Source: a virus (lineage: Duplodnaviria; Caudoviricetes). From it: a DNA stretch of 36,960 nt. The stretch is taken from positions 1-36,960 of IMG/VR virus record IMGVR_UViG_3300006810_000012; one strand, given 5' to 3'. Below, piece by piece: positions 1,627 to 6,106 of this stretch (within the stretch, counting starts at the first letter, position 1; each line of letters begins with the position of its first letter). The notes below the pieces were generated by a model. It saw only the letters and a list, made by a program, of their open reading frames with translations. It had not been told where the DNA came from and made no database searches. Both the position numbers and the translations under genes were made by a program.

Positions 1627-1655
1627 TTGTAGAAAATCCATCCATGCTGTAGAAG
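1627..1655 (+). promoter_or_regulatory. Putative sigma70 promoter for the structured RNA
   Basis: TTGTAG-N17-TAGAAG; the start site would fall at ~1661, at the first hairpin. Confidence 0.5.
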
Positions 1656-1734
1656 AAAAAGCGGCGGCGCGAGAAGTTAATCTCTAGCGCCGCCTTGGAT
1701 GACACGAACTTTGGACGGTTCCGTGTGTCATCGA
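1652..1734 (-). ncRNA. Putative ~80-nt antisense (counter-transcribed) RNA
   Basis: Downstream of the minus-strand promoter; two hairpins, the last GC-rich and followed by GCTTTTTCTT (intrinsic terminator-like). Confidence 0.5.
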
Positions 1735-2060
1735 CAGCAAATGTATCGCAAATGCGAATGAGTTGCAACTAGAACCTTCCTGACTTTTGGCACTTTCAAA
1801 GCAAGGTGATGTGGTTTTTGTCTTATGAACCCCAATCAATAGACTAAGAACCGGGGATATCACCCGACCCTGTGCAGATCGGTCCTAACTGGACTGCACG
1901 CGAAGTGCGATAACAAACCCACCGTCTAAGAACGGGGACCGCGTAAGCGGGGTTGGAGAAAACCCAACGGGCAGCGGCTGGCCACCGAGAAAAGGCATCG
2001 CATGGATACGGTTCTGGAGGCGTTAGGTGCTGCCTTGTATATCGGGGGCAGTAACGGGTG
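1661..2060 (+). ncRNA. Putative large structured non-coding RNA or origin element
   Basis: No ORF >=60 aa; at least 8 stems, GNRA-capped CCGC-GTAA-GCGG (1939-1950), long-range helix 1769-1776/2010-2017, G-U pairs favour the + strand. Confidence 0.6.
1740..1768 (-). promoter_or_regulatory. Putative antisense sigma70 promoter
   Basis: TTGCAA(1768-1763)-N17-TACATT(1745-1740). Confidence 0.6.
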
Positions 2061-2104
2061 TGGGCCTGTGTCTAAAGCTAAGAGACTGTAACAAAAGAAG
2101 TGAC

Positions 2105-2132
2105 TTGAACAACAAAAAAAAGCGGTTAAGCT
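2105..2132 (+). promoter_or_regulatory. Putative promoter of the second methyltransferase
   Basis: TTGAAC-N16-TAAGCT, followed by the GGAAGGAAACGAAATG leader. Confidence 0.35.
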
Positions 2133-2162: not shown

Positions 2163-3041
2163 ATGAATGACTTAGAAACAAACTTGTTTGGCGAGGTTAT
2201 CCATGCCGACCCAATTTTGCGGGACCGCTTTATTGAGCCGCCATTTTCAGTCTTAGACACAAAAACTGGTAGTTGGCAAAAACGCAAACAGACTTGGGTT
2301 AGCAAGGGCATTGCTAGTGAGGTCGGAAGGACGGCCACAACGTTCAATTCAGCATCAAAAGAAAATACCTTTGCCGGAAAACCAGTAACAATGAACAACA
2401 CGTCTATTTTTGATCCGGCTTTGTGTGAGGTTTTGTATCATTGGTTTTGCCCAGAAGGCGGGAGAATACTTGACCCGTTTGCGGGTGGCAGTGTGCGTGG
2501 CATTGTTGCTAACTATCTTGGTTACAAATACACAGGCATTGATATTAGGCAGGAACAGATTGACAGCAACCGCGAACAAGCGGCGGATATTCTTGCCGTG
2601 AACAATCAGCCAAACTGGTATGTTGGAGACAGCAACAAGATGCTTGACGAAATGTCAGGTGAATTTGACTTTGTTTTCAGTTGCCCTCCATATGCCGACC
2701 TTGAGGTTTATAGCGACCTTGACGGAGATATAAGCAACATGAATTATGACAAGTTCATGGCGGCATATTCCGAAATAATTGCAAAATCTTGTGGGCTTTT
2801 AAAGGCTGGCGGGTATGCTTGCTTTGTTGTTGGCGAGGTGCGCGACAAAAAAGGAAACTATATTGGATTTATTCCTGACACGATTAAGGCGTTTATGGGT
2901 TGCGGCATGGGATTTTACAACGAAGCGATATTGTTAAATCAGATAGGCACGGCCATGATGCGGGCGGGTGGAAACATGAAAACCGAAAAACTGGTAAAGG
3001 TTCACCAAAATGTTTTGGTTTTCAGGAATGGCTCGAAGTGA
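2163..3041 (+). CDS. DNA methyltransferase (N4C/N6A)
   Basis: SIFDP.LCE, SAM-binding ILDPFAGGSVRG followed by catalytic FSCPPY; more AT-rich than its neighbours. Confidence 0.88.
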   Translation: MNDLETNLFGEVIHADPILRDRFIEPPFSVLDTKTGSWQKRKQTWVSKGIASEVGRTATTFNSASKENTFAGKPVTMNNTSIFDPALCEVLYHWFCPEGGRILDPFAGGSVRGIVANYLGYKYTGIDIRQEQIDSNREQAADILAVNNQPNWYVGDSNKMLDEMSGEFDFVFSCPPYADLEVYSDLDGDISNMNYDKFMAAYSEIIAKSCGLLKAGGYACFVVGEVRDKKGNYIGFIPDTIKAFMGCGMGFYNEAILLNQIGTAMMRAGGNMKTEKLVKVHQNVLVFRNGSK

Positions 3042-3385
3042 TGCTTGAAACACCAGCGGACATTCTAAGCCACTATGCTGACGCCGACGCGGTAGACAGC
3101 TTCATAAAGTGGCGCAAGGCTATCAAAAAGCCATTAACAGAGCGGGCAGCGGTTCTAATCGCAGCCACGCTAAGAAACATCAACGCAGACAACGGGGACG
3201 CCACAGAGGCGCTAGACCTTGCACAAGAGCATGGCTGGCAGACCATCAAGGCAGACTGGTATTGGAGGATTAAAAATGGCAACGGAAATAATCAAGGCGG
3301 CAGGGCTTCCGACAGTCACGCCACAACACGCGCAATCTCTTTCGCCGCAAAAGCTGCAAGAACACCGAGCGGCGATTGCTTTTGA
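3041..3385 (+). CDS. Stand-alone C-terminal domain of a lambda-O/replisome-organiser-like initiator
   Basis: F..WRK..KKPLT..A....L......EA......GWQ pattern typical of phage initiator C-termini; ATG coupled to the MTase stop; only 114 aa. Confidence 0.6.
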   Translation: MLETPADILSHYADADAVDSFIKWRKAIKKPLTERAAVLIAATLRNINADNGDATEALDLAQEHGWQTIKADWYWRIKNGNGNNQGGRASDSHATTRAISFAAKAARTPSGDCF

Positions 3386-3713
3386 CGTTGAGGTAATTCT
3401 TGACGGGTATTGGGACAGCAGACCACCTGACCACATCAAAGCGGGTATCTTGGCGGACTGGTCCGATGCGCTGCAAGACTGGACGGGCGAGCAGGTTCTA
3501 TGGGCGCTGCGCAAGTGGCGGAACGACAACCCAAGCAAGAAGCCAAACCCCGGCCATATCTTAGCAATCTGCAAAGCCAAGCGTGGCGCACGGGTAGCGG
3601 CTGAAATGCGGCAAGAGGAAACAGCGCCAGAGCCGAAGACCAAGGTGACGAAAGAGCAGGCCGAAGCGATTTTGGCTGATGCTGGATTTTCAGTGAAAAG
3701 GATGAACCAGTGA
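3276..3713 (+). CDS. Putative helicase loader (lambda P/G39P-like)
   Basis: W.DAL.DW...QV..AL..WR......P.PG.I pattern; GGAGG RBS; follows the O-like gene. Confidence 0.5.
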   Translation: MATEIIKAAGLPTVTPQHAQSLSPQKLQEHRAAIAFDVEVILDGYWDSRPPDHIKAGILADWSDALQDWTGEQVLWALRKWRNDNPSKKPNPGHILAICKAKRGARVAAEMRQEETAPEPKTKVTKEQAEAILADAGFSVKRMNQ

Positions 3714-3755
3714 GCGCAGAAAACGCACTGATGCAACACAACGAGAGGAAAGAAA

Positions 3756-4046
3756 ATGAGTGACGCACCAAAGATCATATACGCTGCACCGCCGCACGAC
3801 GATCCGCAGTGGAAGCACGGCGCGGGTGAATGGGACGTGTCTGAAGATTGGGTGGTAGAGAATAAGATGCTGTACCACCACGACGACACAGTGCAAGAAC
3901 TGCAAGCCCGCATTGCTGAACTGACCGAGGCTTTGCAAATTATGGCAGGGGCGCGGAAAACACACGAAGCATTGGGCGGTAACTATAAGTTTATAATTGA
4001 CAGATGGATAGACGCAGCTTGTTCTGCATTGGGGGCCAAGCCATGA
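3756..4046 (+). CDS. Hypothetical protein (short coiled coil)
   Basis: GAGG RBS, 96-aa ORF coupled to the next gene. Confidence 0.7.
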   Translation: MSDAPKIIYAAPPHDDPQWKHGAGEWDVSEDWVVENKMLYHHDDTVQELQARIAELTEALQIMAGARKTHEALGGNYKFIIDRWIDAACSALGAKP

Positions 4047-4360
4047 GTGATGAAATTATAAACGCATCTGCGCGGGTTCACGGCATTAGCGTGTCTGACC
4101 TTCTAAGCGAAAGCAGAGAGCGCAAGTTCATGCCAGCGCGTCAGGCTGTAGCTGTCCTACTGGACGCTAGGGGGTTGGACGCAACGCAGATTGCGCGGAT
4201 ATTAAACCGGGCGCACAATTCGTCTGCCCGGTCGCTACTAGACGCATACTTTGCAACGGCCACCCCAGAACGCGAGGCACAAATCGATGCCGTGCGTATC
4301 GTGGCTATGGTTTCGGACCTGTCCCGCGTTGTGAAAAAAACAAACGAGACTGTCAATTAG
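4043..4360 (+). CDS. DnaA C-terminal (domain IV)-like HTH protein
   Basis: II...ARVHGISVSDLLSESRERKFMPARQ.......G...TQIARILNRAH matches the Bac_DnaA_C pattern. Confidence 0.7.
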   Translation: MSDEIINASARVHGISVSDLLSESRERKFMPARQAVAVLLDARGLDATQIARILNRAHNSSARSLLDAYFATATPEREAQIDAVRIVAMVSDLSRVVKKTNETVN

Positions 4361-4425: not shown

Positions 4426-4623
4426 ATGGGTATCTTTAAGCACTTTGGGACATTGAGCCAAGCAAAGGCTTATATGCGTGAAGCTGATCCGCACGGCGAC
4501 AGTTTGACCTATCAACGCAAGTCCGGCAAGCACACCAAGCCCTATGCTGTAGCTACGCGGTTGGAGCACTTGCACTTTACACCTGACGCTTGGGTTAAAA
4601 AAACACGGAAGGAAACGACATGA
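4426..4623 (+). CDS. Hypothetical protein
   Basis: ATG after the GGAGGGAAACGAC leader; 65 aa. Confidence 0.7.
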   Translation: MGIFKHFGTLSQAKAYMREADPHGDSLTYQRKSGKHTKPYAVATRLEHLHFTPDAWVKKTRKETT

Positions 4624-4907
4624 CCTTAGAAAACCTATCTCAAATCACAACACCCTATGGTTTGCTGGAGGAAGACACCAAAAACGCCCTGCAAGCTGCA
4701 TGGGAAGCTGGGTGCGGACTTGAGGCATTTGCCGGATTAGATTGGCTTCATGTAGAATTCCCAAATTGGCATGGCCGCACAGTTTACCGAGTTAAGGCCG
4801 AGCCTGTACGCCGGACGCTATATCGGGACTTTGGCATTTCTGGCCGTCACGTTATCACCTGTGACCCAACAGGCGAAAACCCGACAGTGGAATGGGAGCC
4901 AAGCTAA
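4620..4907 (+). CDS. Hypothetical protein
   Basis: GGAAGGAAACGAC leader; ATGA overlap; P.W....VYRVK motif seen in phage accessory proteins. Confidence 0.75.
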   Translation: MTLENLSQITTPYGLLEEDTKNALQAAWEAGCGLEAFAGLDWLHVEFPNWHGRTVYRVKAEPVRRTLYRDFGISGRHVITCDPTGENPTVEWEPS

Positions 4908-5698: not shown

Positions 5699-6106
5699 AT
5701 GATGCTAGAAGACTTGGAAGACGAAAAGGCCGCAAAGGTGCGGGACCGCGCCAAAGTGACCATACCGGGCAGTGAGGATGCCTATGCCTCAATGCTGACG
5801 CAATTCAATGATGGGAAGCACGAGGGCAAGGCCCCGCGCTCTATGCCTATCTCAAATGACATTGGACACCGCGCTTATACTCTGCGCAAATGGATAGCAA
5901 AGAACCCCGGCTGCAAATCGCTGGCAATCAAGCAAGGCGCAGGGCTAGGGGCGCATGACTTCAAAAACTTCATTTCATGGCTATACACACGCGACCTTGT
6001 GTTTAAGTCCGGTGGAAAGTCATCTAGCCTGATGCAATACTTTGCCACAGAGGCCGAATTGCTGGAATACGAAGCCTTCAAGGCGTTAAAGGTGAAAACA
6101 AAATGA
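5699..6106 (+). CDS. Hypothetical protein, possible winged-helix C-terminus
   Basis: AAGGA RBS; WIAKNPGCKS..I.....LG....K.....L....LV pattern. Confidence 0.6.
   Translation: MMLEDLEDEKAAKVRDRAKVTIPGSEDAYASMLTQFNDGKHEGKAPRSMPISNDIGHRAYTLRKWIAKNPGCKSLAIKQGAGLGAHDFKNFISWLYTRDLVFKSGGKSSSLMQYFATEAELLEYEAFKALKVKTK

Follow-up and report, generated by a model that had tools for sequence, protein, structure and literature searches.

A conserved structured RNA with a predicted antisense leader in the replication module of roseobacter-type phages: a candidate ColE1-like primer RNA

Replication started by an RNA has been described for ColE1, for the marine RNA-based (MRB) plasmids and, among mycobacteriophages, for some whose prophage is a plasmid (PMC5043065, PMC8683028, PMC3035462, PMC7157519). 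As described there, ColE1 and MRB replicons combine a long RNA with promoters that converge and with antisense hairpins at its 5' end (PMC5043065, PMC3035462, PMC8683028). In ColE1, a short antisense RNA (RNA I) is fully complementary to a long non-coding transcript (the RNA II pre-primer) over its first ~100 nt, and the ColE1-type forms of Vibrionales and Pasteurellales are described with two antisense stem-loops (PMC5043065, PMC8683028). The MRB plasmid replicons of Vibrionaceae are reported to have a Rep-less, iteron-less origin region with an RNA I of ~70 nt ending in a terminator and a longer RNA on the opposite strand; the RNA I module is conserved and the rest can be non-homologous, as in pES213 (PMC3035462). 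The non-RepA cluster A mycobacteriophages reportedly require a non-coding RNA for replication, which alternates with an initiator gene among relatives. According to the same source, these RNA origins serve the plasmid prophage state beside parABS, and phage Miko can do without its RepA in lytic growth (PMC7157519). The structured motifs ARRPOF, GEBRO and PAGEV (223-349 nt) have been linked to plasmid replication regions, with the remark that replication-linked motifs may act as single-stranded DNA (PMC5737381).

The window, by which we mean the whole stretch of DNA analysed, is a complete virus record of 36,960 bp with terminal repeats. Its nearest cultured match is Sulfitobacter phage phiGT1, and this match and the structural genes suggest that the window phage is a podovirus of roseobacter-type hosts. 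The RNA element sits between two DNA methyltransferase genes in a gap of 562 nt (1601-2162), where the longest stop-free stretch is 53 codons on the + strand and 75 codons on the - strand. The methyltransferase gene that follows (2163..3041, +; phrog_498, PF01555) is a variable passenger of the slot, being missing or substituted in homologues. In lambda O/P-type initiator modules (PHROGs 678, 270 and 9327), a C-terminal initiator domain is followed by the P-position gene, and the window shows the same gene order and the same C-terminal domain. Its 114-aa protein (3041..3385, +) is a stand-alone C-terminal domain of an O-like replication initiator, matching solely positions 224-301 of the 346-position O-like initiator family phrog_678. 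The lambda P position is taken by an ORF with a match to phrog_6055 and no Pfam match (3282..3713, +), for which we infer a helicase-loader role from position only. The N-terminal DNA-binding domain of the lambda O type and its iterons were not found in the window genome.

Among proteins of 62-200 aa, the sole length range searched, the 114-aa protein has 89 homologues. It has no Pfam match and no Foldseek match at E 0.001. Its structure model (mean pLDDT 76) is weakly DnaD-like, with Z scores of 4.4 and 3.6 against DnaD-domain rows; the comparison with 2i5u (VIA-align) gave Z 4.4 and an rmsd of 2.6 over 61 residues, a level at which unrelated rows tie. Elsewhere in the window genome there was no match to HTH_36 or phrog_270, local N-domain and primase profiles gave none, and no full polymerase, primase or helicase was present among the ORFs scanned. 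No iteron-like repeat array was seen, the 20 largest of 30 repeat families all being two-copy, and the GC skew tracks gene orientation and marks no origin. Integrase, repressor and partition genes were not recognised among the ORFs scanned. The phage encodes SSB, Erf recombinase and NinB, and its Erf, exonuclease, NinB and HNH genes lie on the minus strand. A protein resembling the C-terminal HTH of DnaA (4004..4360, +) matches PF08299 at E 9.5e-7, below the cut-off. A 135-aa ORF at 5699-6106, a winged helix by eye, has no Pfam or PHROG match; ORFs resembling it at the same position in genomes G407 and G425 give weak initiator N-domain matches.

The element proved larger than the initial annotation stated, since a conserved leader unit (~1627 to 1768) belongs to it and its conserved end lies at 2075. 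We predict a rightward promoter for the long RNA at 1627..1655 (+; TTGTAG, 17 nt, TAGAAG) with a start near 1661, and TTG- and TAG-type hexamers at 17-nt spacing recur in the leader alignment A8 of 22 sequences. A leftward promoter is predicted at 1740..1768 (-; TTGCAA, 17 nt, TACATT); TTG(C/A)A and TATA(T/C)T-type hexamers at the same spacing are found in nearly all of 42 distinct leaders. Because a consensus promoter scan at a 9-of-12 threshold called no site (the leftward promoter scores 8/12), the promoter predictions rest on conservation. The predicted antisense RNA is RNA I-like, ~80 nt long (1653..1733, -), and comprises two hairpins (1698-1732 and 1663-1694) followed by a U-run. The hairpins have variable loops, the minus strand of 1658-1735 folds with a z of -6.4, and 19 of the 27 predicted pairs of the antisense unit covary in A8. 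The leader is thus predicted to comprise promoter-like sites that face each other and an antisense RNA with two hairpins, which covers the 5' end of an RNA of ~415 nt. This layout, a short stem-loop antisense RNA with a U-run that is complementary to the 5' end of the long transcript, is predicted for the 22 aligned and 42 listed leaders.

The long RNA is RNA II-like and is predicted to run from 1661 to 2075 on the + strand (~415 nt), with its structured body at 1769-2075; covariation and the lack of a long ORF support this assignment. The initial annotation had proposed a multi-branched RNA fold within this body, and all the strings it named are present where it placed them. Its expectation that the body would fold better than shuffled controls held marginally by energy (z of -1.2 to -1.7). 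For 1769-2060 on the + strand, z was -1.69 and 6/150 shuffles were as good (minus strand: z -1.27, 17/150); for 1760-2065(+) the values were -1.17 and 13/100, and for 1800-2060(+) -2.49 and 0/150. It is the comparative evidence that decides for structure. We aligned 19 type-A homologues by sequence only with MAFFT (alignment A5) and took a corrected structure from RNAalifold on an earlier 12-sequence alignment, of which 11 rows are common with A5. In A5 this four-way-junction fold is paired in 94.1% of 775 cells and shows two-sided changes at 24 of 41 pairs. None of 500 shuffles was as high, the shuffle being one that ignores kinship, and slid-partner controls reached 34-45%. G-U cells outnumber A-C cells across the alignment (84 vs 11), which indicates that the + strand is the folding strand. 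Covariation and G-U bias thus bear out the proposal of a selected, multi-branched RNA structure on the + strand, and by these sequence comparisons the structured element is real.

The course of the helices differs from that first proposed. The core junction (1847..2015, +), defined by covariation, contains P3, P4, P5 and P6. Its closing helix P3 joins 1847-1853 to 2009-2015, with 133 of 133 cells paired and 7/7 pairs covarying. The initial annotation had instead closed the fold with 1769-1776/2010-2017, which is paired in 54% of cells and has zero two-sided changes. Two further helices that it had drawn, 1805-1812/1857-1864 and the inner 1813-1819/1846-1852, are each paired in 45% of cells; jointly the three reach 47.6%, a value attained by 415 of 500 shuffles. 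Moreover, the pairing of 1805-1812 is excluded because hairpin P1 (1791..1808, +; 1791-1796/1803-1808), which is common to types A, B and C in the alignment folds, uses 1803-1808. The loop of hairpin P2 (1820..1844, +) is C-rich and complementary to the G-rich tail at the 3' end, and RNAalifold pairs the P2 arm with this tail. A pseudoknot between the P2 loop and the tail is possible from this complementarity; among P2 arm-tail duplexes, the cognate ones were no better than permuted ones (p 0.43).

Within the junction, P4 (1854-1856/1863-1865) is followed by hairpin P5 (1871-1900), a linker near 1901-1904, P6 (1905-1910/1998-2003) and a conserved GGATAC (2004-2009), all on the + strand. The hairpin seen at 1872-1899 by the initial annotation agrees with P5, being 93.6% paired with 6/6 pairs covarying. 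The variable domain within P6 (1911..1997, +) holds hairpins at 1922-1935, 1939-1950 (GUAA loop), 1952-1968 and 1981-1996, which had also been listed. The one at 1952-1968 is well supported (82% paired, 4/5 pairs covarying). That at 1981-1996 is 98% paired and nearly invariant, and is therefore uninformative, and those at 1922-1935 (43/75 cells) and 1939-1950 (60/74) fall in a variable, poorly aligned domain. The GNRA character of the GUAA loop is not a conserved feature. The 3' hairpin P8 (2029..2052, +), proposed as 2028-2053, is 90.8% paired, with changes that are mainly C-G to U-G.

The initial annotation could not match the body to a tRNA, tmRNA, RNase P or intron, and the searches agree. 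There was no relevant Rfam match at the gathering score or E 10, none to ARRPOF, GEBRO or PAGEV under the same limits, no Rfam covariance-model match to known small ribozymes or to group I or II introns, and no ARAGORN call in the window. No intron-style interrupted gene was found on either side, and the downstream gene varies among homologues; the suggestion of splicing or self-cleavage has no support from context. The initial annotation missed the upstream antisense unit, the headless initiator downstream and the swapping of the slot with initiator genes, and it is these three that point to replication.

Homologues were gathered via the 114-aa protein, via DNA motifs and via a search of 401 genomes. 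Of 28 matches to the leader pattern, five without a leader by profile were dropped as chance and 12 repeated known loci; two of the eight places from the 401-genome search (L111 and L112) were dropped as coding DNA. Among the 42 distinct leaders, 41 precede a non-coding element and one (L089) precedes a full-length DUF1376 initiator gene. By alignment or profile, the bodies were assigned to types A (14), B (14), C (6) and E (1), and the remainder were sorted by eye into types D (3), F (2) and G (1). The junction of type A recurs in type B, where 40 of 75 predicted pairs covary. C(UNCG)G loops occur in 13/14 type-B elements, where UUCG and UACG interchange. These loops and the G-U bias indicate that RNA rather than DNA is the folding molecule. 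A type-A core covariance model finds 12/13 type-B and 3/6 type-C elements (E 2e-10 to 0.015, with rough calibration) and finds nothing in ColE1, in types D-G or in terminase-selected controls.

Type E is a separate fold of ~300 nt, with covariation at 31 of its 58 predicted pairs (11 sequences); examples are L220:1735-2075, L223:1110-1460 (minus) and L076:3610-3937, the last in a phage. It had no Rfam match in the four loci scanned, and no body type matches Rfam. Locus L029 is identical to the window over the O piece (345/345 nt) and agrees with it at 136/153 positions of the leader, and its body is of type C (166/328). Because L029 keeps the O piece and leader and differs in the body, bodies are exchanged between near-identical phages. 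The gene behind the element also varies freely and may be a methylase, a ParB-like gene, a helicase pair, an HNH gene or a terminase.

Conservation falls beyond the TG(T/C)CTAA-type motif that, with a G-rich tail, closes most bodies. The last 26 nt contain 7-15 G in 36 ends, and no U-run stands behind the end motif in 30/33. In the window, the G-rich tail and the conserved TGTCTAA end (2069-2075) occupy 2055..2075 (+), and conservation drops after the motif across the 36 distinct ends. We predict that this segment is the R-loop and RNA-to-DNA switch region. In ColE1, a G-rich stretch lies just before the RNA-to-DNA switch site. A matrix built from the phage 3' ends ranks the ColE1 G-run site 8th to 149th of ~13,260, a weak resemblance. 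Behind the end, a promoter-like site for the next gene was noted by eye at 2105..2132 (+; TTGAAC, 16 nt, TAAGCT), and TTGAC lies within ~85 nt behind the end in 9/33 homologues, compared with a shuffled mean of 1.9 and a maximum of 7.

The initiator genes of RNA-bearing phages were compared by searching 31 records with phrog_270 and phrog_678, namely 27 with the RNA and four controls without it. A C-terminal-only match was found in 24/27 RNA-bearing records and a full-length initiator ORF in 0/27, whereas all four controls carry the N-terminal part or the full-length protein. Ten of the 27 had been found via the C-domain, so the link is circular there, and several records are close kin. Counting just the 17 records that a DNA motif alone had brought up, 14 match solely the C-terminal part of phrog_270 or phrog_678, which are two domain families. 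Another of them, the complete phage G411 (L113), retains its type-A RNA intact alongside a broken O C-domain and has in addition a distinct 164-aa HTH_36 initiator ORF accompanied by a pair of repeats; the remaining two have neither. One genome with neither initiator family, G415, has a type-B-like 3' end. Weak N-part matches were seen in distant winged-helix ORFs of two records.

We also examined 41 terminase-selected loci with enough upstream DNA. Full-length or N-domain initiators without the RNA were found in 13, as predicted, and 22 had no recognised initiator. The remaining six have a C-terminal-only initiator with no leader and no type A or B match; five of these, read by eye, were negative for type E as well, and one is cut by the locus edge. 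The prediction that every C-terminal-only initiator adjoins an RNA failed on these six loci. In one of them, L171, the C-domain stands alone in the early operon, and an HTH_36 ORF with direct repeats lies beyond the repressor region (570-960 and 4435-4824). Judged from these genes, L171 has a split protein initiator, and the protein partner of a headless initiator can be encoded elsewhere.

The slot swap was tested most strongly in satellite-like loci, reached through a small gene which precedes the RNA in three viral contigs and has 28 matches in 26 of the 401 genomes. Behind this gene stands a type A RNA in three loci and a type E RNA in 17 by profile, 10 of which built the profile, and in two more by eye. 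Of the other loci, three have an HTH_36 ORF in the slot, two a protein of the Prim-Pol or AAA_25 kind, and one a different set of genes. In L217 and L221, the HTH_36 ORF leads into the terminase start that is also seen in RNA-type loci. The type E RNA loci fall within L211-L234, in addition to the type E RNA of phage L076. In nine regions of 10-20 kb around RNA-bearing islands, local profiles gave no initiator or primase match. Pfam searches on 45 of 133 listed ORFs of four islands recognised genes for heads and packaging together with a single integrase, and gave no match to a primase or initiator. L205, L236, L237 and L238 are small islands in chromosomes that encode capsid, protease and portal proteins, a terminase in three and an integrase in one; from this gene content they look like capsid-forming satellites.

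How far, then, does the element resemble the described systems? The predicted layout is that of ColE1, with a long non-coding transcript and a short antisense RNA complementary to its first part, and the two antisense stem-loops are as in the Vibrionales and Pasteurellales forms (PMC5043065, PMC8683028). ColE1 has no origin-binding protein; in the window genome none was found, yet the initiator C-domain is kept and a DnaA-C-like HTH is present. The element is shorter (~415 vs 550 nt), resides in tailed phages and satellites instead of plasmids, is accompanied in most cases by a P-position gene and an initiator C-domain that has been kept, and has no Rop-like gene that we could see. Membership of the ColE1 family by sequence was rejected, since the type-A nhmmer profile and covariance model had no match in NC_001371 and there was no Rfam RNAI match. 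The MRB replicons, as described, share the layout of RNA I and a longer opposite RNA, and their conserved RNA I module with non-homologous remainder parallels our types A to G behind one leader; they belong to another host group and element type (PMC3035462). In a blastn search of the RNA bodies against plasmids, no Vibrio plasmid was among the matches; the one real match in the plasmid collection was a Rhodobacteraceae plasmid with its own rep gene. The mycobacteriophage RNA origins resemble the element in being phage non-coding RNAs that alternate with an initiator gene, and in the replication role proposed here; they serve the plasmid prophage state whereas the present element lies in an early replication module (PMC7157519).

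We consider 1661-2075 to be a ColE1-like primer RNA under antisense control which replaces the origin-binding half of the initiator, with a probability of roughly 0.6. That the RNA likely starts DNA replication follows from the related phage and satellites which carry an initiator gene in the same slot. From the conserved fold, the antisense leader, the C-terminal-only initiators and the slot interchange, we infer the following biochemical steps. Host RNA polymerase would transcribe the long RNA from the promoter at 1627-1655. The fold would keep the G-rich 3' tail hybridised to the template in an R-loop ending near TGTCTAA (2069-2075). The RNA end could then prime DNA synthesis by host enzymes, or the displaced strand could be exposed, or both. 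The stand-alone initiator C-domain and the P-position protein would load the host helicase on the displaced strand. The 80-nt antisense RNA from 1768-1740 would pair with the 5' end of the long RNA and limit initiation, like ColE1 RNA I. Against the primer reading, headless initiators also occur without the RNA, G411 holds the RNA together with an HTH_36 initiator, and the DnaA-C-like HTH of the window could bind the origin. A broader proposal is that many tailed phages and their satellites have swapped the origin-binding half of the initiator for interchangeable RNAs that open and prime the origin in cis, with the orphan C-domain and P-position protein completing a split initiator of RNA and protein and loading the host helicase in lytic replication; this we put forward tentatively, with the odds somewhat against it. 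The proposal further holds that two or more unrelated folds (A/B/C as one, E as another; as many as five by eye) serve behind one antisense unit, which is to be taken with similar reserve.

The RNA might instead be a cis-acting, antisense-controlled leader or antiterminator of the put- or EAR-like kind that tunes downstream replication and late-early genes while a separate HTH protein binds the origin; in the window, the DnaA-C-like protein (4004..4360) is a possible origin- or DNA-binding partner of this sort. The element does head replication genes, the antisense unit also precedes the full-length initiator gene of L089, C-terminal-only initiators exist without the RNA, L171 has its separate HTH_36 ORF with repeats, and G411 combines RNA and HTH_36 initiator. 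This explanation is a poorer fit, because the gene that follows is variable and is often preceded by a new TTGAC site (9/33 vs 1.9) or an int-alpA RNA (3/20 loci), because the conserved fold includes no start codon or terminator and 30/33 ends lack a U-run, and because a leader would not alternate with initiator or primase genes between the same flanking genes in satellites. A fixed place before one gene family, with overlap of a terminator or ribosome-binding site, was not what we found. We regard a cis-acting leader as unlikely.

Replication could also be served by the DNA form. The fold might arise in single-stranded DNA as a primosome-assembly or single-strand origin signal that recruits host primase or helicase once a fork or recombination exposes the + strand, in keeping with the replication context, with the SSB, Erf recombinase and NinB of the phage and with the remark on single-stranded motifs in PMC5737381. 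However, the interchange of UUCG and UACG (13/14 type B) and the excess of G-U over A-C cells (84 vs 11) are expected of RNA, and the conserved promoter and antisense layout would be without a role; a DNA signal is hence very improbable. The element might also have spread with homing endonucleases, either as a selfish or catalytic RNA (an intron or ribozyme that went unrecognised) or as an RNA that acts in trans and has no part in replication. The HNH genes inside the L062 element region and right behind the phiGT1 element, and the exchange of bodies between near-identical phages, would suit such spread. Most copies have no adjacent endonuclease, though, no Rfam intron or ribozyme matches, neither side carries an interrupted gene, and the alternation with initiator genes would be left unexplained. 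We think this origin quite improbable too.

The element represents an uncatalogued structured RNA family that is real; should the mechanism hold, it would be a new form of RNA-based initiation of replication. The analysis adds two or more uncatalogued folds of ~300 nt each. If true, the primer reading would place RNA-started replication in the early module of marine roseobacter-type phages, of a Stenotrophomonas phage group and of capsid-encoding satellites, and would explain initiator-gene fragments in phages and the replication of primase-less satellites. Two cultured phages, phiGT1 (MT584811) and SBP2phi2 (PQ074228), carry slot elements, making the proposal directly testable, and small protein-free origins for roseobacter vectors could result. 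We found no description of the element in the literature; it may stand unnamed among the candidates of PMC10690425. Five element motifs are absent from supplementary files 3, 5 and 6 of that paper, and the words 'replication' and 'noncoding' are absent from the phiGT1 paper (PMC10386132).

Several loci show further arrangements. In 3/20 loci scanned, the element is closely followed by the int-alpA RNA motif (RF02996; L012:2677-2742, L033:3362-3428 and L062:2872-2936), and similar sequence was seen by eye in several more. In L062 (~3000-3900, minus), a type-D body and a type-B 3' end are separated by an HNH endonuclease gene, and in phiGT1 (L002:2920-3986) an HNH gene is directly behind the element. 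The type-B 3' end motif occurs without the roseobacter leader at L203:3594-4025 (PQ074228), L060, L063, L059 and L066; a C-terminal-only initiator is nearby in SBP2phi2, L060, L063 and L066 and absent from the 93-kb phage of L059/L061. What is left of a type-A RNA at L106:438-1586 (G001:C40) is its 3' third, directly behind a DUF1376 N-domain ORF and a 151-aa ORF; this arrangement is either a module swap or an assembly chimera. A type-A copy before a terminase small-subunit gene on a Rhodobacteraceae plasmid (L075:5871-6133; CP081164) is probably a satellite remnant; as replication evidence it is uninformative, the plasmid having its own rep gene. At L103:2787-3265, five tRNA genes are clustered just upstream of the leader on the opposite strand.
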